From positions 340,026-404,025 of the forward strand of contig JAZKIU010000001.1 of the NCBI GenBank assembly GCA_040384705.1: DNA of 64,000 bases, in the 5' to 3' direction. The stretch comes from Patescibacteria group bacterium. Lineage in GTDB: Bacteria > Patescibacteriota > Minisyncoccia > Phycocordibacterales > Phycocordibacteraceae. The notes beneath the pieces were generated by a model. That model saw only the letters and a list, made by a program, of their open reading frames with translations, was not told the origin of the DNA and made no database searches. Below are positions 29,625-38,449 of this stretch, piece after piece. Within the stretch, counting starts at the first letter, position 1. Every line of letters begins with the position of its first letter. The position numbers and the translations under genes are program-made.

Positions 29625-31202
29625 ATGTTCTGGGCCGATCGCATAGCGAAAGAGATACAAGATACGAAAGGAGAACGCGCGCAGGCGAAGCCGCTTTTGA
29701 TACGTGACGAGAAGACCCTCTCCGGGCGCGTGCACATCGGCTCGATGCGTGGTGTCGCGATACACGGCGTCATTGCCGAAGTACTTACCGAATACGGTGT
29801 GGCGAACGAATACCAGTACGAGCTGAACGATTTCGATGATTTCGATTCGATACCCGGGTATCTCGATGAGGAGAAGTACCGGGAGCACCTCGGGAAGCCG
29901 CTCTACGCGGTACCGTCGCCCGAGCCTGACTTCGATAGCTATGCCGACTACTATGGCGATGAGTTCATGCGCGTGCACAAGAAAGCGGGATTCAATCCCA
30001 GCTACTACACCGCCCGCGAACTGTATGCGTCGGGCAGGATGGATGCCCTCATCAAGACGGCGCTCGAGCACGCGGCCGACATACGCCGTATACAGAAGGA
30101 GGTTTCGGGCTCGCAGAAGGAGGATAGCTGGCTCCCTATATCCGTCGTGTGCGAGCAGTGCGGGAAGATAAAGACGACCCGTGCGTTCGACTTCGACGGC
30201 ACGACCGTTGCGTATGTGTGCGATCAGAGCCCGTATGGCGCGGCGCCGTGCGGCAAGGAGGCACGCATATCGCCATATGGCGGTACCTCGAAGCTATTCT
30301 GGAAAGCGGACTGGGCCGCCAAGTGGGTCGCGGTCGGCGTCGATATCGAAGGCGCAGGCAAGGATCACTCGACCAAAGGAGGGTCGCGCGACGTGGCGAA
30401 CCATATCGTGCGCGAGGTCTTCGGGAATGAACCCCCGTTCGATATACCGTACGAGTTCTTCCTGGTGGGAGGGAAGAAGATGTCGTCGTCGAAAGGAAAG
30501 GGTTCGACCGCAAAAGAGATGAGCGATCTCTTCCCTGCTCCTGTGCTCCGGCTCGTCCTCATCGGCAAAGACATCAATCAGCAGATAGACGTCGACCCTT
30601 CCGGCGACTCAGTCCCACGCATGTACGATTGGTACGACGATCTCGCTGAAAAGGTGCGCCAGGGCGTCGCCGACGACTTCACCCGTCTTTATGCCCTCGC
30701 GCAGCTTCCGGAGAACCGTGCGGAGCTCACTGCTCCTTGGCAGTTCCGTTTCTCGCAAGTGGCGTTCGTCGTGCAGATGCCGCACCTCTCTCTCCTTGCG
30801 GAAGCCGAAGCAGTGAAAGGGGAGGCGCTTACGAACGAGGAGCAGGTGCTGCTCGAAGAACGTGCGGAATACGCGCGCTTCTGGTTGTCGACGTATGCTC
30901 CCGAGAGCTATCGCTATGAGATCCATGCGGAGATGCCGGAGATTGAATTCTCGGGGGCGCAGAAGCAAGCGCTCTCCCTCCTCGCCTCATTCGTGGAGAC
31001 TCCTCGTACAGGAGAAGAACTCCATCATCGTCTGCATGAGCTCAAGACCGAGGTCCCGATAGAGCCAAAGGAGCTGTTCGGCGCGCTCTATCAGCTCTTC
31101 CTCGGCCGCACGTCGGGCCCCAAAGCCGGCTGGTTCCTCTCCGTGCTTCCGCAGGATCTCGTACGCGAGCGGCTTCTCGCTGCTTCCGAGCAGAAAGGAT
31201 AG
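29625..31202 (+). CDS. lysK: Lysyl-tRNA synthetase, class I
   Basis: HIGSMRG (HIGH-like) and KKMSSSKGKG (KMSKS-like), the diagnostic class-I LysRS signatures; Zn-binding Cys cluster CEQCGK...C. Confidence 0.8.
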   Translation: MFWADRIAKEIQDTKGERAQAKPLLIRDEKTLSGRVHIGSMRGVAIHGVIAEVLTEYGVANEYQYELNDFDDFDSIPGYLDEEKYREHLGKPLYAVPSPEPDFDSYADYYGDEFMRVHKKAGFNPSYYTARELYASGRMDALIKTALEHAADIRRIQKEVSGSQKEDSWLPISVVCEQCGKIKTTRAFDFDGTTVAYVCDQSPYGAAPCGKEARISPYGGTSKLFWKADWAAKWVAVGVDIEGAGKDHSTKGGSRDVANHIVREVFGNEPPFDIPYEFFLVGGKKMSSSKGKGSTAKEMSDLFPAPVLRLVLIGKDINQQIDVDPSGDSVPRMYDWYDDLAEKVRQGVADDFTRLYALAQLPENRAELTAPWQFRFSQVAFVVQMPHLSLLAEAEAVKGEALTNEEQVLLEERAEYARFWLSTYAPESYRYEIHAEMPEIEFSGAQKQALSLLASFVETPRTGEELHHRLHELKTEVPIEPKELFGALYQLFLGRTSGPKAGWFLSVLPQDLVRERLLAASEQKG

Positions 31203-32385: not shown

Positions 32386-32886
32386 ATGTCGCCCTTGAGA
32401 CGCAACTCGCTCTTCGTACGGAATACCATCTTCGGTATCGAAGACAGCCTGGCCGCTACGGTCGGGCTTCTCTCAGGCCTTGCGGCCGAGAATATCTCTC
32501 ATGAGGTGCTGCTCCTCACCGGTTTCGTGTACATCTCCGTCGAAGCGTTCTCTATGGGCATCGGTAGCTTCCTCTCCGAGGAGTCGGCGCAGGAATACGA
32601 GGGAGTGCCAACGACGAACCTCCACACCTTGCTCGGCAGTCTTGCTATGTTCGCCTCCTGCATCATAGCGGGCTTGGTTCCGATCGTGCCCTACTTCTTC
32701 CTTGAGGATGAGCAAGCCCTTTTCGGTTCGATAGCGCTGTCGCTCATCGTGCTCGCAGCGCTTGGCGTTGTGCAGGCTCGCCTATCAGGGCGTTCCGTCC
32801 TCCCGCGCGTCCTCCGTATGGTCCTGCTTGGGGGCGCTGCTATCTTCGTGGGCGTCCTGGTTGGCAAGGCGTTCGGGCTATCCTAG
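32386..32886 (+). CDS. VIT1/CCC1-family membrane protein (short form)
   Basis: GIEDSLAATVGLLSGLAAE matches the VIT-family G.nDG...s.lv.Gvaaa motif; 4-5 TM helices. Confidence 0.5.
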   Translation: MSPLRRNSLFVRNTIFGIEDSLAATVGLLSGLAAENISHEVLLLTGFVYISVEAFSMGIGSFLSEESAQEYEGVPTTNLHTLLGSLAMFASCIIAGLVPIVPYFFLEDEQALFGSIALSLIVLAALGVVQARLSGRSVLPRVLRMVLLGGAAIFVGVLVGKAFGLS

Positions 32887-32949
32887 CGCCTTCATGGATA
32901 TTTTATATTCCAGCGCTATGCTGGATGAGTTAGCCACTAACCCCGCTCT

Positions 32950-33285
32950 ATGACCATAGTCCATTGGATCGTTTCCGCTCTTGCTATCGGTATCGCCGCG
33001 TATCTTATCCCTGGCATCGATGTGACCCTCGTGGGTGCGCTCGTGCTCGCCGTGGTGCTCGGCCTCATCAATGTGTTCCTGAAGCCGCTCATCGGGCTCA
33101 TCACGCTCCCGATAAACATCGTTACCCTCGGGCTCTTCTCGCTCGTCGTGAACGCGCTCCTCATCATGCTCGCGGGCATGGTGGTGCCGGGCTTCGCCGT
33201 CGATGGATTCTGGCCAGCATTCTTCTTCTCGATCGTCGTGTCGCTCATCAACGCGCTGTTTGGCGGGTTGGGCAAGCGAGCCTAG
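32950..33285 (+). CDS. DUF360 / holin-superfamily-4-like small membrane protein
   Basis: Four TM segments, VPGFAVDGFWPAFFFSIVVSLINALFGG motif typical of the YvlD/Mgra family. Confidence 0.5.
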   Translation: MTIVHWIVSALAIGIAAYLIPGIDVTLVGALVLAVVLGLINVFLKPLIGLITLPINIVTLGLFSLVVNALLIMLAGMVVPGFAVDGFWPAFFFSIVVSLINALFGGLGKRA

Positions 33286-33365
33286 ACTCATTTCGCGTCG
33301 GAACGCGCGCTGGTTATTACCAGCGCGCGTTCTCGTGTTAGCCACGTGCCGTATACTGGAGCGTA

Positions 33366-36095
33366 ATGGAGGGACCCATACGACCTATAGCCTCGCCCGA
33401 GGCCGAGCTTGCGTATCTTCGCGAGCAGATAGCCGCGAAGGAGGCGGAGCTCGCGCAGCTGCAGGAGAGCCGGCCGCGTGAAGAGATCGCGCATGAACGC
33501 ATACTGCATCATGCGCAGAATACGCAGGCGGAACACTATGCTCCTGGATATCAGCTACCTGCGGAATCAGTCGAGGCACTGACGCTTTCGCTCGACCCGG
33601 AACAGAACGATGAGACCATGGCCGAACTACGCACCCTCATCGAGACGAAAGGAGTGCGCAACGCGTTCGCGGTGCTCGAGAAGCTCAAGAGCCCGCACCT
33701 CGAGGATGATTTCCACCGGTTCCTCGTGCAGTACGTAGTGGCAGGCATGCAGGTGCAAGGCCTTCGTGAGAACGAGCCCGAGTGGAAGGCGCTACACATG
33801 AGCTTGTATGAGATAGCGCTGCCGGAGATGGCAGGAGGAGATGATAAAGATAGGGCACGGCCGCTGAAAGAGCTCCTCTCCTCCATGGAGCAGTTCTACG
33901 CCGGCATGCTCTCGCTCGAGCACGCGCATAAGGGTGAGCACCCGTACTTCTCGCTTGAGCTCGCGATAGCGGTCGATGCCCCCCACCTCATGTTCTATGC
34001 CGCGGTGCCCAATACCCGCCGTGACCTCTTCGAGAAGCAGCTTCTCGCCATATTCCCGAATGCAGTGGTGAAGATGCAGCCCAACGACTACAACATCTTC
34101 GTCGAGGATGGGACGAGCGTGGGCTCCTATGCGCTCCAGAAGGATAATCCGCTCCTTCCGCTCAAGGACTACACGGACTTCGACTACGACCCGCTCAACA
34201 CGCTCCTGAACGCATTCGCGAAGATATCGTCCGAAGGGGAAGGCGCTTCGCTCCAGATACTGCTCAAGCCCCGCGGCAACCACTACATCGAGCATTATAA
34301 GAAAGTGCTGCATGCGCTGCGCGAGGGGCAGTCACGCGCCAAGGCATTTTCCATACCGGAGACGTTCGTCGGCGATCTCGCCAAGGAGGCAGTGAACATA
34401 TTCACCTCGAGCAAGAAGATACCGCACGACCCTACCAAAGCCGACCAAGCAGCTATCGAGGCGCTCGAGAAGAAGATAGCGGCGCCGATAATAAATACGA
34501 ACATGCGCCTCGTGGTCTCTTCGAGGGATCCGCATAGGGCAGAGCAGATACTCACCGAGCTCGAGTCCGCCTTCAATCAGTTCGAGAATACGAAAGGGAA
34601 CCGGCTCGAATGGAAGCGTGCGAGCGGAGGTGACGCGAAGAAGCTCTTCCGCAATTTCTCGTACCGCTTGTTCGGCACACCATCGCTTCCGCTGTCGCTT
34701 CGCGAGGTGTCGACGATGTACCACTTCCCGCCCAAAGGCATCGAGTCATCGCCGCACCTCACCCAATCCCGCTTCACGAGCGCTGCGGCTCCTGTGGGCC
34801 TCCCGCAGGACGGGGTGCTGCTCGGTACGAACACGTTCCGCGGTTCGGCCACCGAGGTCAGGCTTGCGAACGAGGACCGTCTTCGCCATCTCTATGTCAT
34901 CGGGCAGACCGGTACGGGTAAGACATCGTTCATGAAGACGCTCATCGAGCAGGACATCAAGGCCGGGAACGGCGTCTGCTTCATCGACCCGCACGGCAAC
35001 GATATCCTCGACGTTCTCGCATCCATCCCGCCCGAGCGGTACGAAGACGTCATATACTTCGACCCGGCATACATCGATAGGCCGTTCGGTCTCAACTTGC
35101 TGGAATACGATGCCTCGCGCCCTGAGCAGAAGACATTCATCGTGAACGAGCTTCTCGCTATCTTCCGCAGGCTATATGGGGACGTGCCGGAGTCGATGGG
35201 CCCCGCCTTCGAGCAGTACTTCCGCAATGCGACCCTGCTCGTGATGGAGGACCCGGCATCGGGCTCCACCCTCATGGATATCGGCCGCGTGCTCTCGAAC
35301 AAGGCGTTCCGGGACATGAAGCTCGCAAAGTCCATGAACCCCATCGTGAACCAGTTCTGGAACGAGATAGCAACGCAGGCGGATGGGGAGGCATCACTCG
35401 CGAACATCGTGCCGTATATCACGAACAAGTTCGATGACTTCACTGCCAACGACTTCATGCGCCCTATCATCGGCCAGCAGGAGTCCTCCTTCAAGTTCCG
35501 CGACGTCATCGATGGGAAGAAGATACTGCTCGTGAACCTCTCGAAGGGACGGCTCGGCGAGCGCAACGCGAACCTGCTCGGGCTCATCCTCGTCGGGAAG
35601 CTCTTCATGGCAGCGCTCTCGCGGGCCGACGACCCCCGTGCCGACTTCCCGCCGTTCTATCTATACATAGACGAGTTCCAGAACATCACCACGGACTCCA
35701 TTCCGAGCATTCTTTCCGAGGCTCGCAAATACAAGCTTTCCCTCACCATCGCGCACCAGTTCCTGGCTCAAGTGGATGAGAAGGTGCGGGATGCGGTGTT
35801 CGGTAACGTTGGAAGCATGGCGGTGTTCCGGGTGGGCGAGGCGGACGGGGAATTTTTCGCCAAGCAGTTCGCTCCCGTGTTCGGAGCGCTCGATTTCGTG
35901 AACATCGAGAACTACAACGCCTACATACGCATGCTTTCGAAGGGAGTGCCGCAGAAGCCGTTCAACTTTAAATCAGTGCCGCCATCCACAGGCAACCTCG
36001 CGCAGGTGGACGATCTCCGCGAACTTTCCTACCTCACCTACGGGCGGGAACGTGCTACTGTTGAGAGCACTATAAGAAGCCGCTATCTTTCCTGA
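33366..36095 (+). CDS. Large P-loop ATPase of the VirB4/TraC/HerA superfamily (909 aa)
   Basis: Walker A YVIGQTGTGKTS followed by FIDPHGN; Walker B FYLYIDEFQN; ARKYKLSLTIAHQF; roughly 480 aa N-terminal domain without recognisable motif. Confidence 0.6.
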   Translation: MEGPIRPIASPEAELAYLREQIAAKEAELAQLQESRPREEIAHERILHHAQNTQAEHYAPGYQLPAESVEALTLSLDPEQNDETMAELRTLIETKGVRNAFAVLEKLKSPHLEDDFHRFLVQYVVAGMQVQGLRENEPEWKALHMSLYEIALPEMAGGDDKDRARPLKELLSSMEQFYAGMLSLEHAHKGEHPYFSLELAIAVDAPHLMFYAAVPNTRRDLFEKQLLAIFPNAVVKMQPNDYNIFVEDGTSVGSYALQKDNPLLPLKDYTDFDYDPLNTLLNAFAKISSEGEGASLQILLKPRGNHYIEHYKKVLHALREGQSRAKAFSIPETFVGDLAKEAVNIFTSSKKIPHDPTKADQAAIEALEKKIAAPIINTNMRLVVSSRDPHRAEQILTELESAFNQFENTKGNRLEWKRASGGDAKKLFRNFSYRLFGTPSLPLSLREVSTMYHFPPKGIESSPHLTQSRFTSAAAPVGLPQDGVLLGTNTFRGSATEVRLANEDRLRHLYVIGQTGTGKTSFMKTLIEQDIKAGNGVCFIDPHGNDILDVLASIPPERYEDVIYFDPAYIDRPFGLNLLEYDASRPEQKTFIVNELLAIFRRLYGDVPESMGPAFEQYFRNATLLVMEDPASGSTLMDIGRVLSNKAFRDMKLAKSMNPIVNQFWNEIATQADGEASLANIVPYITNKFDDFTANDFMRPIIGQQESSFKFRDVIDGKKILLVNLSKGRLGERNANLLGLILVGKLFMAALSRADDPRADFPPFYLYIDEFQNITTDSIPSILSEARKYKLSLTIAHQFLAQVDEKVRDAVFGNVGSMAVFRVGEADGEFFAKQFAPVFGALDFVNIENYNAYIRMLSKGVPQKPFNFKSVPPSTGNLAQVDDLRELSYLTYGRERATVESTIRSRYLS

Positions 36096-36100
36096 TACGT

Positions 36101-37879
36101 ATGTCTAGAGAAGGGGGACCTCCGCAGAAGCAAGCACGGGAAGCGTCATTCGAAGGCGGCTTGTCTTCGGTGTTGGAAACGCTCGAAGCAGAATCCAAGA
36201 CCACAGGAATGGTGAGCGAGGGGACGCGTGAAGCGATCGAGGCCGAGCTCGTGAGGATGGAAAGCGAGGCGGATGCGGAAGCCAAGAGGATTAAGGCTGA
36301 TGTGGAGCGCACATCCGAGGAGAAGACGAGCGACCTGGCCGACATCAAGAAGCTGCGGACAGTCATCACCCAGTACCGTAAATATTCTTCCACATCGATA
36401 GAACCGATTTCCCGCGTCATCAAGGTCGTGAAGGAGGTCGGGCAAGCATACGGTGTCATGAAGGGGCAGTCTGTAGAGAAGGTAGAGGACGCTCCTCGTG
36501 AAGAAGTTAAAGATGAGCCTGTCGTCGTTTCGGTTGAGGAAGAACCTACGGTCGAACCGTCAGGAGACGATGATGATGCGCTGGAACCCGTCCTTGCTCC
36601 GGACGCACCACCGATCGCCGAAGTCCCTCTGAAGAAGGATAAAGCTGAGCGCGGCCCAACACCTGCGGAAACAGCTGCAGCAAAGAGGCAGAAGATCGAA
36701 GCCGAGGTGAAGGCGAAGCAGGAAGCGCTTAGCGAGATCTACTTTGCGCTCGCTGATGAAATACACGAGGCGGGATTGAAAGTGCAGGATATACAAACGG
36801 AATGGAATCGTGTCATAGAAGTTCGCGAAAGGCTGAACGCTCACTGCGAGAAGTACAAGGGTACCGCGACTCGCAAGCTTCTCGATAAAGAGAGTGAGGA
36901 GTTATTCGACGAGTTCACGGGTCCGGTAAGCGAGGGGGTCAGGCACGCGATAGCTCGGGTCCTGCTTGAGCGTAGCAAGTTCGCGGCTAATCCGGACGCG
37001 GACTCTCGCGCGGAAAAAGAGGATGTGCTCGAGGACGTAGTCACGAAGCTTGCGGCGACCGAGGACCAGCCGATAGTGATGGTGAATACCGTGCTCACGC
37101 GTATGGCTATGGGCGGAAAGAGCTCTAAGAAGCTACCCCCGACCGCATTCCCCGCATTCCAACCGGACAAAGTACAAAAGCTCGAGCCCGAAAAACTTAA
37201 AACATTTGCTCAAAAGGCCGCTCGGCACCGTGAGGACAGGCTCGATACGAGACGGCGGATACATGGCATACGTGGGTTCTTACAGGTCGCGGGCAACGCA
37301 GGGTTCGCAGGATTCTTGGGCCTTCTTGCGTTCGGTCATAACCATGACTCAAAGGATGTGATGAAGCCGAAGGCACAACCTGCTGCAGGAAGCCCGCTTA
37401 ATCAGACGGCTGCTGCGACTGAGAAGCCAACGCACTCCACCGACAAACCGCCTGCTCAACAGGTCCAGAGACCCACGACGGAAACCGTTAGCGCGGCACA
37501 GCCGGAAGTCGTGAAGATAATGACTGCTCCAGAAGTTAAGAAGTATAGGGCTATGCCTAAGGACGAGATGGAAGCCTGGAAGCGACGCTTCAGTCTTTGG
37601 ACGCGCGCGAAGTACCCGAAGGGATATGTAGAAGCGGATACGGAGAAGGTACGGAAGGAAATGCTCACGGAACTCAAATATCCAGCCAACTATCCTGCAA
37701 AGAAGCGGGACGTGGCTAAGAAGCCACGGAGCCCCAAGGAATCCGTTATGACTGCCTCGATTGAGTCAGCAGGCAGCTTCGGGCCTCCGTTACCTGCTCC
37801 TCCCGCGCCATCACGCGAGGAACCCCGTATCATGTCTCTTGAGGAGTATGTGCAGAGCGAAGCGGGCAAGAAGCCCTAA
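36101..37879 (+). CDS. Large acidic, coiled-coil-rich hypothetical protein (592 aa), 6 nt downstream of the ATPase
   Basis: Glu/Lys/Ala-rich low-complexity N half, Pro-rich middle, basic C-terminal part; same strand and tight spacing imply co-transcription. Confidence 0.5.
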   Translation: MSREGGPPQKQAREASFEGGLSSVLETLEAESKTTGMVSEGTREAIEAELVRMESEADAEAKRIKADVERTSEEKTSDLADIKKLRTVITQYRKYSSTSIEPISRVIKVVKEVGQAYGVMKGQSVEKVEDAPREEVKDEPVVVSVEEEPTVEPSGDDDDALEPVLAPDAPPIAEVPLKKDKAERGPTPAETAAAKRQKIEAEVKAKQEALSEIYFALADEIHEAGLKVQDIQTEWNRVIEVRERLNAHCEKYKGTATRKLLDKESEELFDEFTGPVSEGVRHAIARVLLERSKFAANPDADSRAEKEDVLEDVVTKLAATEDQPIVMVNTVLTRMAMGGKSSKKLPPTAFPAFQPDKVQKLEPEKLKTFAQKAARHREDRLDTRRRIHGIRGFLQVAGNAGFAGFLGLLAFGHNHDSKDVMKPKAQPAAGSPLNQTAAATEKPTHSTDKPPAQQVQRPTTETVSAAQPEVVKIMTAPEVKKYRAMPKDEMEAWKRRFSLWTRAKYPKGYVEADTEKVRKEMLTELKYPANYPAKKRDVAKKPRSPKESVMTASIESAGSFGPPLPAPPAPSREEPRIMSLEEYVQSEAGKKP

Positions 37880-37948: not shown

Positions 37949-38449
37949 ATGAATGTCACGGGTACGGGTATAGCGGTAGGGCTTGCGGTCGTCATCGCGC
38001 TCGGGTTCCTCTATTTCGGTCCAGTGCTCTTCACTCCGTTCACGGAGGAGGCACCGGTGGCTCTTGATCAGACTGCATCTACAACTATGGAAAATATGAT
38101 TCAACCAGGCCAGCCGCTTCCGACCGAACTCACGGTATCCGACTCGGTCGTCGGCACCGGAGCGGAAGCTACTCCAGGAAGCACGGTGAGCGTCCAGTAC
38201 GTCGGCATGCTGCCGGACGGTACGGTCTTCGATGCATCCGCTAACCATGGCGGTGCACCGTTCACGTTCCAGCTCGGAGCGGGGCAGGTCATCAAGGGAT
38301 GGGATCAGGGCGTCGCTGGCATGAAAGTTGGTGGTAAGCGCCAGCTCATCATCCCAGCGGACCTCGCGTATGGGAACCAGGCTGTTGGTGGGGTAATCCC
38401 TGCAAACGCGACGCTCATCTTCGAGGTTGATCTCGTCGGGGTGCAGTAG
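37949..38449 (+). CDS. FKBP-type peptidyl-prolyl cis-trans isomerase, membrane anchored
   Basis: [16 protein letters not shown]...[38 protein letters not shown]. Confidence 0.8.

Follow-up and report, generated by a model that had tools for sequence, protein, structure and literature searches.

A coupling-protein-like ATPase lacking a transmembrane helix and its adjacent membrane protein in Patescibacteria

Introduction

What does a large translocase-like ATPase do on a Patescibacteria chromosome when no T4SS genes surround it, and does it act together with the product of the gene that follows? The question is raised by two plus-strand open reading frames, 33366..36095 (909 aa) and 36101..37879 (592 aa), in a 64-kb stretch of DNA that was analyzed as a whole (the window). 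The original prediction described both ORFs, which do exist, and placed the first product in the VirB4/HerA/FtsK-like translocase superfamily, a call that is correct. It also reported that the flanks hold no T4SS genes; neither T4SS genes nor a relaxase were found anywhere in the window, flanks included. Orphan homologs of type IV coupling proteins (T4CPs) are near-universal in Patescibacteria (PMC12102498), and the ATPase family is itself already catalogued: it is very large in Patescibacteria, where members match the ATPase over its full length at 70-97% identity, occurs across Patescibacteria classes, and is labelled DUF87 or VirD4-like in source annotations. The architecture of the ATPase, along with its partner, appears to be undescribed so far.

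Domain architecture of the ATPase

Open reading frame, profile, and alignment evidence divides the 909-aa protein into three modules. All of the motifs quoted in the original prediction are present: Walker A, GQTGTGKTS (aa 513-521; 34902..34928, plus strand), the IDPHG element (aa 540-544), Walker B, LYIDEFQN (aa 766-773; 35661..35684, plus strand), and the segment ARKYKLSLTIAHQ (aa 786-798). Their key residues, including G513, T515, G516, G518, and K519 of Walker A and D769, E770, F771, and N773 of Walker B, do not vary across a family alignment of 28 sequences with identities down to 37%. The ATPase has no transmembrane (TM) helix, because its top-scoring hydrophobicity window (1.53) sits inside the motor core.

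The N-terminal half had been considered a novel domain without recognizable motifs, a description that has to be abandoned, since this half corresponds to Pfam PF26449 (DUF8128) in every homolog listed and in fact comprises two modules. Module 1 (aa 1-128; 33366..33749, plus strand) is helical, with AF2 placing helices at 11-126 and then a linker of low confidence at 129-136. Its counterpart in other Patescibacteria clades is a free ORF of 137-164 aa directly 5′ of the ATPase gene, seen in 6/6 distant loci and recovered in a pairwise match (E 5e-5); an HMM built from these free ORFs matches the long ATPases at aa ~20-150 only. Module 1 is joined to the ATPase by gene fusion here. Module 2 (aa ~140-465; 33783..34760, plus strand) is the DUF8128 domain, with a fold that matches the N-terminal domain (NTD) of TrwK/VirB4. 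In VirB4 (TrwK), the NTD serves for dimerization and as a docking platform for the cytoplasmic tails of VirB3 and VirB8 (PMC9259494).

Coupling protein or VirB4

Module 3 (aa ~480-909; 34803..36092, plus strand) is a P-loop motor with an all-alpha insertion, as indicated by Pfam, NCBIfam, PDB profile, and Foldseek comparisons. Two Pfam families score above their cut-offs, DUF87 (31.1 bits, cut-off 23.2) and TraG-D_C (26.9, cut-off 22), and TrwB_AAD_bind falls narrowly under its threshold (19.5 vs 20.5); a distant clade of the family additionally carries TrwB_AAD_bind and T4SS-DNA_transf. The best NCBIfam matches are TraD/VirD4-like, although the curated T4CP models all remain far under cut-off. 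When the family profile was compared with PDB sequences, TrwB (4.6e-5) and DotL (2e-4) were the best matches. The AF2 model of the motor (pLDDT 90.7) gave a similar ranking in Foldseek, with TrwB first (5e-13, TM 0.60-0.64), Cagbeta and DotL next, and HerA fifth at a nearly equal value (1.3e-12). By sequence and structure, the motor is closest to type IV coupling proteins.

Another reading makes the ATPase a true, though highly divergent, VirB4, that is, the assembly or energizing ATPase of a dispersed T4SS. An NTD-plus-motor layout and a size of ~800-900 aa are both VirB4-typical, the DUF8128 fold points the same way, and the VirB4 CTD is a significant structural match to the motor (2e-9, TMt 0.67). 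However, TIGR00929 reaches only 14.8 bits against a cut-off of 643, a Pfam scan (E <= 0.01) returned no VirB4-specific family, and T4CP signatures (TraG-D_C, TrwB_AAD_bind, T4SS-DNA_transf) and T4CP structures outscore VirB4. Furthermore, Patescibacteria possess a separate monophyletic VirB4 with VirB3/6/8 neighbors, and one Bacillus plasmid encodes both a member of the ATPase family and a TcpF-type VirB4. We consider a VirB4 identity quite improbable.

Genomic context and conservation

The ATPase gene is preceded by a gene for a 111-aa, 4-TM protein of the Phage_holin_4_2 family (32950..33285, plus strand), which occupies position -1 or -2 in 22 loci. Just 3′ of it lies a perfect 13-bp hairpin, GAACGCGCGCTGG-TTATTA-CCAGCGCGCGTTC (33301..33332, plus strand), read directly from the sequence, where a simple scan flagged only a shorter overlapping stem; it is likely the terminator of the holin-family gene, parting that gene from the ATPase operon. 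A -10-like hexamer, TATACT (33352..33357, plus strand), lies 8 nt 5′ of the ATPase ATG, a leaderless-type arrangement, and hexamers of the form TA[ATC][AT][AC]T precede the ATG in 46/60 related loci (scan window 5-12 nt upstream, observed distances 6-11 nt). The conserved downstream neighbor is a membrane-anchored FKBP-type PPIase gene (37949..38449, plus strand) with its own upstream TATACT and with homologs in the flank of 43/80 loci. The syntenic order is ATPase-partner-FKBP-tgt-uvrB. The median identity of the ATPase is 71%, vs 72% for Tgt, and its dN/dS is 0.04. In the ultra-small Patescibacteria, the ATPase gene behaves as a core gene of the chromosome: it is inherited vertically, is under strong constraint, and lies outside mobile or defense islands.

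These data bear on the proposal that the locus is a HerA-type defense module. HerA and the MADS protein mad8 share the FtsK/HerA-superfamily motor fold with the ATPase, and an anti-phage or DNA-processing ATPase of this kind, equipped with a new partner, would fit the PADLOC mad8 match (2e-13 over aa 507-855), the HerA model matches (3e-6), and the HerA structure found by Foldseek. Nevertheless, the HAS-barrel is absent, the N-domain is VirB4-like, and no nuclease, Sir2, methylase, or other MADS or defense genes lie nearby. The family is spread over Patescibacteria classes, and its housekeeping synteny, Tgt-like rate, and low dN/dS are unlike the patchy distribution of mobile defense islands. 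A defense role is unlikely, and the HerA/MADS-like reading as a whole is very hard to credit.

The downstream membrane protein

The 592-aa partner (36101..37879, plus strand) begins 5 nt past the ATPase stop codon. As predicted, it is rich in Glu, Lys, Ala, and Pro (E 12%, K 9.8%, A 11.7%, P 7.6%) and has a basic C-terminal part (net +9), against an acidic N part (net -14). The claim that it lacks a TM helix was mistaken. Residues 393-411 (FLQVAGNAGFAGFLGLLAF; 37277..37333, plus strand) form a hydrophobic segment directly after an Arg/Lys cluster, with an equivalent in 43/46 family members, and are predicted to be a TM helix (KD 1.54; 1.85 in the L001 ortholog). K+R per 20 aa averages 4.8 upstream of the segment vs 2.1 downstream, and upstream exceeds downstream in 41/46 members, a positive-inside bias. 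The Arg/Lys-rich N-side flank therefore predicts an N-in/C-out topology for this bitopic protein. A GGPP motif (aa 5-8; 36113..36124, plus strand) exemplifies a family-wide enrichment of Pro-Pro near the N-terminus: 25/46 members have a PP in their first 25 aa, vs 4.6 +/- 2.0 in random windows (maximum 13 over 2000 draws), an enrichment of about 5-fold. The partner evolves very fast, with 74% identity where the ATPase holds 96%, and its relatives reach up to 1,270 aa. Its dN/dS of 0.18 indicates a real gene under selection.

Pairing of the two genes

The spacer between the ORFs is 5 nt rather than the 6 nt first given. The proposed coupling of the two genes stands in part: the spacing is tight and the partner's position is conserved in 45/73 informative loci (median gap 5 nt over these 45 loci, <=14 nt in 40/45, overlapping in some), but the partner is clade-specific and is missing from that position in some close relatives. 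In the other 28/73 loci, no member of the partner family occupies the usual place directly 3′ of the ATPase gene. Six close relatives have FKBP directly after the ATPase, with no partner between. A compositional screen of 27/28 partner-less loci (all but L021, with L028 covered under the FKBP-directly set) revealed no partner-like gene within +/-10 kb, and in six loci examined from the ~800-aa clade, the partner was undetected downstream of the ATPase.

Because flanking synteny is conserved too, the fact that the two genes adjoin is by itself a weak sign of functional coupling. The 592-aa protein might be a lineage-specific envelope protein with no relation to the ATPase, merely neighboring it in a slowly rearranging syntenic block: the order of FKBP, tgt, and uvrB is likewise conserved, the partner is gone from its usual position in the six close relatives and in a clade at 52-55% identity, and the two proteins evolve at very different rates. 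Conversely, the short and sometimes overlapping gaps argue against simple proximity, as does the conserved promoter-like element before the ATPase gene, given that the 5-nt spacer in this window leaves little room for another. In addition, a distant locus (L087) encodes, just 5′ of the ATPase, an E/K/A-rich protein of similar composition that has a PP motif in its N-terminal part and TM segments in its C-terminal part; a DUF5663 gene also lies just upstream of that ATPase. On balance, mere neighborhood seems unlikely.

A possible mechanism

The reading that we prefer, and to which we give about even credence, is a T4CP-like motor without a TM domain (TMD), bearing a VirB4-type NTD and a fused helical module, with a co-transcribed bitopic membrane protein as its tether. 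The partner probably holds the ATPase at the membrane, by analogy with known systems. Coupling proteins "lacking TMD" are a recognized subfamily that works with small membrane proteins, as in TraJ of pIP501 with TraI (PMC7434980). The partner gene would be transcribed together with the ATPase gene, and its product would expose an acidic, PP-containing N part to the cytoplasm, span the membrane once, and place a Pro-rich, basic C part outside the cytoplasm, thereby supplying the anchor missing from the ATPase. The DUF8128 domain may dock the motor on the cytoplasmic part of the partner, in analogy to the VirB4 NTD and to TraJ/TraI. An ATP-driven, presumably hexameric ring would then deliver its substrate (either DNA or protein) to a channel in the membrane, which most simply would be the Patescibacteria T4SS encoded elsewhere. 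The minimal dispersed T4SS-like apparatus of the original prediction is a possible reading.

However, two points argue that the motor need not work with a T4SS: T4CP homologs are found in 2,918 genomes vs 2,417 for VirB4, and in Southlakia epibionticum ML1 the t4cp homolog is reported to be dispensable, in contrast to the essential T4SS genes (PMC12102498). Only 148/5,713 T4CP homologs lie near virB4, and exaptation was suggested by the authors themselves (PMC12102498). The motor could accordingly be a T4SS-independent nucleic-acid translocase, exapted from a conjugative coupling protein, for instance for DNA or RNA uptake, chromosome handling, or export, with the partner as its dedicated membrane component instead of a bridge to the T4SS. 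Housekeeping surroundings rich in DNA repair genes (uvrB, uvrA, uvrC), a distant locus in which the ATPase gene adjoins pilM-like, pilN-like, and rmuC genes, and weak NCBIfam matches to CedB and CedD, ATPases of archaeal DNA import, are consistent with such a role. Against it, the locus lacks a linked channel-forming partner (ComEC or a VirB6-like protein), the uvr neighborhood is possibly plain synteny, and a conjugation operon clearly houses the plasmid homolog. We view this T4SS-independent role as somewhat unlikely.

Comparison with known systems

TrwB, VirD4, DotL, and Cagbeta provide the top sequence-profile and structural matches to the motor, and the ATPase carries the TraG-D_C signature. 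Unlike the ATPase, these canonical T4CPs begin with a TMD of two helices, lack a VirB4-like domain, and are encoded alongside a relaxase or T4SS. VirB4 (TrwK of R388; PDB 7O42, 8RTD) resembles the ATPase in having an NTD followed by a RecA-like motor and no TM helix of its own. However, NTD identity is only 9-10%, VirB4 sequence models miss the ATPase, its motor is nearer to T4CPs, and it has no VirB3/B6/B8 neighbors.

The same TM-less combination of DUF8128 and motor occurs in an 885-aa DUF87 domain-containing protein of Bacillus plasmids (e.g., NZ_CP035190.1, WP_128472464.1), which aligns with the ATPase at hhalign probability 100 (E 9e-40, aa 175-874 of the window protein, 25-28% identity). 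This homolog is plasmid-borne and lacks both the N-terminal helical module and an E/K-rich bitopic partner. Its gene opens a conjugation operon, with a relaxase-family (replication-relaxation) gene next to it and T4SS genes following (TcpF-type VirB4, lytic transglycosylase), and its product is the sole non-VirB4 ATPase there.

TraJ/TraI of pIP501 likewise pairs a P-loop motor of the VirD4/TrwB kind, which has an all-alpha insertion and no N-terminal TMD, with an adjacent membrane-protein gene as a possible anchor. In contrast to TraJ, the ATPase is encoded on the chromosome, is inherited vertically, occurs near-universally in a phylum, has no relaxase or T4SS genes nearby, and bears a ~325-aa VirB4-type N-domain together with the fused helical module. 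Where TraI is small, the partner is acidic, hypervariable, and large, at 592 aa here and as much as 1,270 aa in relatives.

The ATPase Gene and Its Genomic Context

Both reading frames lie where the original prediction had placed them, the ATPase at 33366..36095 (+, 909 aa) and its partner directly 3′ at 36101..37879 (+, 592 aa), and all four quoted ATPase motifs were found in the translated ORF: Walker A GQTGTGKTS (aa 513-521), IDPHG (aa 540-544), Walker B LYIDEFQN (aa 766-773), and ARKYKLSLTIAHQ (aa 786-798). In a 28-sequence alignment extending down to 37% identity, G513, G516, G518, K519, D541, P542, and G544 are invariant or nearly so, as are D769, E770, R787, K788, Y789, H797, and Q798. 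Family-wide, K519, D769, and E770 do not vary, and a Walker A/B P-loop nucleotide-binding domain (NBD) of the FtsK/HerA/TrwB type is present. More than 3,500 relatives are detectable; the best 120 are full-length and 70-97% identical, and those among them that are named come nearly all from Patescibacteria/Paceibacterota MAGs. Their source annotations read “DUF87 domain-containing,” “TraM recognition domain-containing,” or “putative VirD4 component.”

The window is entirely housekeeping in character and encodes class-I lysS, VIT1, a PPIase of the FKBP type, tgt, uvrB, uvrA, and uvrC, along with topA, relA/spoT, parB, serS, and ATP synthase. Searches with Pfam and NCBIfam together with gene context revealed no relaxase or T4SS genes anywhere in the 64 kb, in agreement with the original prediction that none flank the ATPase; its neighbors are lysS, VIT1, a holin_4_2-family gene, FKBP, tgt, and uvrB, with no virB3/virB6/virB8-type gene among them. 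The gene order ATPase-(partner)-FKBP-tgt-uvrB was found again in 35-43 of 80 related genome loci, in which ATPase identity spans 52-96%. Median identities were 71% for the ATPase, 72% for Tgt, 80% for UvrB, and 59% for FKBP, and the ATPase dN/dS against its closest relative was 0.041 (0.018 for the motor alone). Given this conserved synteny, Tgt-like divergence, and low dN/dS, the ATPase has the behavior of a core gene passed on vertically, not of mobile- or defense-island cargo. A mobile-element origin was rejected, as synteny is kept and the rates are vertical.

Several neighboring genes merit description. The lysyl-tRNA synthetase (29625-31202) is of class I (archaeal-type; TIGR00467, 4e-91), consistent with a Patescibacteria origin. 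The real gene at 32950-33285 (+) encodes a 111-aa, four-TM protein of the Phage_holin_4_2 family (Pfam 3e-30), conserved at -1 or -2 in 22 loci; an overlapping 155-aa ORF on the opposite strand (32878-33345, -) would mislead longest-ORF calling. FKBP (37949-38449, +) is the most constant downstream neighbor (43/80 loci), comes straight after the ATPase in loci that lack the partner, and has an N-terminal hydrophobic anchor, so the protein is probably extracytoplasmic. A functional link, e.g., folding of the partner’s Pro-rich ectodomain, would be conjecture.

A Motor Close to Type IV Coupling Proteins

The third module of the ATPase (aa ~480-909) is its motor. In Pfam, the window protein matched DUF87 (31.1 bits vs. 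a cut-off of 23.2) and TraG-D_C above its gathering score (26.9 vs. 22), fell just below the cut-off for TrwB_AAD_bind (19.5 vs. 20.5), and had no T4SS-DNA_transf match reported at E <= 0.01. A distant clade of ~800-aa ATPases (38% identical) additionally carries TrwB_AAD_bind and T4SS-DNA_transf, the latter faint or weak in the few homologues for which its strength is stated. The three best NCBIfam matches of the motor were TraD and VirD4-like models, scoring 33-47 bits against cut-offs of 250-648; by these scores the motor lies outside every curated T4CP equivalog. When the family profile was compared with PDB sequences, TrwB (4.6e-5) and DotL (2e-4) ranked first.

Structural comparison gave a similar picture. 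Fold assignments were made on AlphaFold2 (AF2) models built from 82-sequence alignments, the motor model (aa 466-909) reaching a pLDDT of 90.7 and a pTM of 0.90. In it, helices (model residues 122 to 290) account for most of the sequence separating Walker A from Walker B. The best Foldseek match was TrwB (5e-13, TM 0.60-0.64, ~450 columns), followed by HerA (1.3e-12), Cagbeta, DotL, DndH-C, and the VirB4 C-terminal domain (2e-9); the NBD plus all-alpha domain fold of TrwB is present, and the HerA match is nearly equal. The superfamily named in the original prediction thus stands on Pfam, PDB-profile, and Foldseek matches, and since these and the NCBIfam matches converge, the motor is probably an FtsK/HerA-superfamily ring ATPase nearest to T4CPs. 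Membership in VirB4 itself found little in its favor: model TIGR00929 scored 14.8 bits against a cut-off of 643 (E 0.006), and no VirB4-specific Pfam family (e.g., CagE_TrbE_VirB) matched the window ATPase at E <= 0.01. An N-terminal transmembrane domain is missing; a Kyte-Doolittle scan detected no hydrophobic segment in the N-half, and the highest 19-residue window of the protein (1.53, at residue 734) falls within the motor.

The original prediction had offered a HerA-type defense module as an alternative. PADLOC mad8, component 8 of the MADS defense system, does match the motor at aa 507-855 (E 2e-13), above any HerA model, and given this match and the near-equal HerA score, the assignment of the motor to T4CPs or to a sister family is not decisive. 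The defense hypothesis was nevertheless rejected: a HAS-barrel and a nuclease or effector partner (NurA, Sir2, DUF4297, and the like) are absent, the N-terminal domain is VirB4-like, and both context and evolutionary rate are housekeeping-like. The mad8 match is also an observation in its own right, as it makes the MADS defense ATPase a close sequence relative of coupling-protein-like motors.

A VirB4-Like Domain and a Fused N-Terminal Module

The N-half had been described as novel and unrecognizable. Its homologues place it in a known Pfam family, PF26449, which is precomputed on P0001 (an ATPase homologue 97% identical to that of the window) and on all 240 listed homologues; a Pfam scan of the window protein itself, with a copy that may not include this model, gave no PF26449 match. 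The family is named DUF8128 in loci of the distant clade, and a DUF8128 N-half followed by a DUF87 P-loop domain is the architecture of the family. For this second module (aa ~140-465), the top 14 Foldseek matches were all TrwK/VirB4 chains (2e-5 to 1.5e-3). Because the query was free of the P-loop and no other P-loop protein matched, these matches must be to the VirB4 N-terminal domain, and on the predicted structure the ATPase carries a domain of that type.

The first module (aa 1-128) is a helical unit in the AF2 model, joined to DUF8128 by a low-confidence linker. In the distant clade, a free-standing ORF of 137-164 aa lies directly upstream of the ~800-aa ATPases and abuts or overlaps their start in 6/6 examined loci (L083, L085, L086, L087, L088, and L089). 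In pairwise comparison it matched aa 94-121 of the window ATPase (E 5e-5), and an HMM built from five such ORFs, run against all ORFs of the loci, matched only residues ~20-150 of the long ATPases. By these alignments, the free-standing ORF is homologous to window aa ~20-150, and the two clearly form a split/fused gene pair. Taken with the fold and sequence assignments of the modules, the upstream-ORF matches show the window ATPase to be a fusion product that joins a small partner to a VirB4-type N-domain and a T4CP-type motor, with no TM helix.

One distant-clade locus has a distinctive neighborhood. At L085:10539-12820, the gene after a DUF8128 ATPase encodes a 500-aa PilM-like protein (TIGR01175, 1.8e-17); two small proteins, whose size and lone TM segment make them possibly PilN/O-like, and rmuC come next, an arrangement that may reflect a connection with pilus or competence machinery in this clade.

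Plasmid Relatives

A tblastn search of the motor against 72,556 plasmids returned 312 records at 26-35% identity, from hosts including Streptomyces, Bacillus, Staphylococcus, haloarchaea, and Sulfolobus, with annotations as T4SS DNA-binding, TraM-recognition, or DUF87 proteins. A 27.6-kb plasmid of Bacillus licheniformis (L090, NZ_CP035190.1) encodes an 885-aa protein without a TM helix. Its hhalign match to the family profile (probability 100, E 9e-40) spans window aa 175-874, from which it follows that both DUF8128 and the motor are present. Its gene opens a Gram-positive conjugation operon (L090 1-12830), with a replication-relaxation (relaxase-family) gene, a TcpF-type VirB4, and conjugal transfer proteins downstream and a lytic transglycosylase/C40 peptidase also in the operon. 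Because it heads the operon, neighbors a relaxase-family gene, and is the sole non-VirB4 ATPase on the plasmid, the 885-aa protein therefore fills the coupling-protein slot, and no other finding points more strongly to a function for the family. The plasmid is typed “non-mobilizable” yet carries an apparently complete conjugation operon; mobility typing probably misses the system. VirD4 of pLS20, considered as a further member, was rejected because it has two TM helices.

The Partner Protein

The composition noted in the original prediction was recovered (E 12%, K 9.8%, A 11.7%, P 7.6%), as was a basic C-terminal part (aa 413-592, net charge +9, 12.8% Pro), which follows an N part (aa 1-392) with a net charge of -14. 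Two other details were revised. The spacer between the genes reads as 5 nt (TGA-tacgt-ATG), not 6, and the protein, described as having no TM helix, has a hydrophobic stretch at aa 393-411, FLQVAGNAGFAGFLGLLAF, which comes after RHREDRLDTRRRIHGIRG and scores 1.54 on the Kyte-Doolittle scale (closest orthologue, 1.85).

A single-sequence search of 5.8 billion proteins with the partner gave two matches, itself and one 72% relative, and BLAST against the 45 positional homologues gave a full-length match only in L001, which carries the closest orthologue. Pfam, NCBIfam, and PADLOC found no domain in the window partner, and Pfam found none in 10 homologues. By position the picture differs: a 490-1,270-aa, E/A/K/P-rich protein follows the ATPase in 45/73 informative loci (median gap 5 nt; <=14 nt in 40/45), and these proteins plus the window copy form one single-linkage BLAST cluster (n=46). 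On sequence comparison, then, the partner is a near-orphan by sequence and a family by position. Within the family, a Gly/Ala-rich hydrophobic segment occurs in 43/46 members, and K+R in the 20 flanking residues averages 4.8 before vs. 2.1 after it (higher upstream in 41/46), a bias from which an N-in/C-out topology is predicted for the partner. Pro-Pro occurs within the first 25 residues in 25/46 members, vs. 4.6 ± 2.0 in random windows. Most members also share a conserved C-terminal domain of ~100 aa, missing from the window copy, L001, and L002, whose profile had no match among PDB sequences. A VirB8/NTF2-like identity would be conjecture.

The partner evolves ~4.5 times faster than the ATPase, keeping 74-78% identity (BLAST 73.7%, MAFFT 77.6%) where the ATPase keeps 96%. 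With a dN/dS of 0.18, it is by this measure a real gene under selection. It is not universal: the expected co-occurrence of the pair held in the 45 loci, and no partner was seen at this position in the remaining informative ones. Six relatives at 65-74% ATPase identity have FKBP directly 3′ of the ATPase with no partner between, a clade at 52-55% identity has other genes downstream, and a compositional screen found no partner-like gene within ±10 kb in 27 of the partner-less loci.

In 29 loci (L006-L065), an acidic all-helical protein of ~100 aa lies between the partner and FKBP. A similar protein of ~100 aa occurs near the ATPase in one distant locus (L087:3597-3896), with only a faint Pfam match to DUF5663. 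The acidic protein, of which the window has no copy (sole tblastn match E 0.007), may belong to the module as an additional component.

Predicted Transcription Signals

Downstream of the holin_4_2-family gene that precedes the ATPase, a perfect 13-bp hairpin occupies 33301-33332, and TATACT stands at 33352-33357, 8 nt before the ATPase ATG. A TATACT/TATAAT-type hexamer, often cgTATACT, lies 6-11 nt before the ATPase ATG in 46/60 related loci. As this spacing leaves no room for a Shine-Dalgarno sequence, conserved leaderless transcripts are suggested in this lineage, and the arrangement suggests a conserved leaderless-type start of a bicistronic ATPase-partner message. A separate TATACT, at about 37893, precedes FKBP. 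A generic promoter/terminator scan of the region was uninformative, its output being at or below shuffled expectation.

Proposed Mechanism and Relationship to Known Systems

In the structure of the R388 T4SS, the VirB4 N-terminal domain mediates dimerization and binds VirB3, and it also binds the N-terminal cytoplasmic tails of bitopic VirB8 (PMC9259494). By analogy, DUF8128, possibly with the fused N-module, would dock the motor on the cytoplasmic part of the bitopic partner, which would stand in for the motor’s missing TMD, and the motor ring could then pass substrate to a membrane channel. A physical motor-partner interaction is suggested indirectly by the 5-nt spacing, the positional conservation (45/73), the N-in topology predicted for the partner, and the enrichment of Pro-Pro near its N terminus across the family.

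The main rival holds that the ATPase is a T4SS-independent translocase instead of a T4SS-linked motor. A survey of Patescibacteria counted 5,713 T4CP homologues in 2,918/3,035 genomes, only 148 of them near virB4, and found VirB4 in fewer genomes (2,417); in Southlakia the T4CP homologue is non-essential whereas T4SS genes are essential, and the authors raised exaptation of T4CP homologues (PMC12102498). These counts and the essentiality pattern are why T4SS independence is kept as the main rival.

The gene family is already known, as a Pfam DUF and in GenBank annotation, and the published “T4CP homologues” probably include it. We found no paper mentioning DUF8128 in the searchable literature, nor any description there of its VirB4 N-domain fold (and hence of a VirB4-like architecture in such “T4CPs”), of the N-terminal ~130 aa as a fused former upstream partner, of a hypervariable bitopic partner that is specific to one clade and bears a PP motif at its N terminus, or of the Bacillus plasmid member in the T4CP slot of a conjugation operon. 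The DUF8128 and motor results correct routine annotations such as “DUF87 domain-containing protein.”

Patescibacteria are host-dependent, and in the only species of the group amenable to genetics the T4SS is essential; that T4SS cluster lacks a recognizable coupling protein, and “orphan” T4CP homologues occur in almost every genome. The docking proposed here offers a testable model for how orphan motors reach the membrane, with a VirB4-type docking domain in place of a TM domain, a small upstream partner absorbed by fusion, and, in one large clade, probable co-transcription with a fast-evolving membrane protein. Type IV secretion uses two ATPase families, and the family described here is also a candidate for an evolutionary intermediate linking them. 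A broader reading, which we regard as rather unlikely, makes DUF8128 ATPases a deep-branching VirB4-VirD4 “missing link” (a VirB4 docking domain on a coupling-type motor), serving in Patescibacteria as a phylum-wide housekeeping translocase without relaxase or conjugation, with the partner as a lineage-specific surface-exposed adaptor; its cargo would be, for example, nucleic acid or protein moving between epibiont and host. Interest would rise if the hybrid architecture were truly an evolutionary intermediate or the motor a conjugation-independent core translocase.

Among known systems, T4CPs without a TMD are a recognized subfamily paired with separate small membrane proteins, as in TraJ/TraI of pIP501 (PMC7434980), and the window ATPase resembles this subfamily in missing the N-terminal TM domain. 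Unlike linked T4CPs, it has no relaxase or T4SS genes around it in the window, whereas its Bacillus plasmid homologue does have that linkage.
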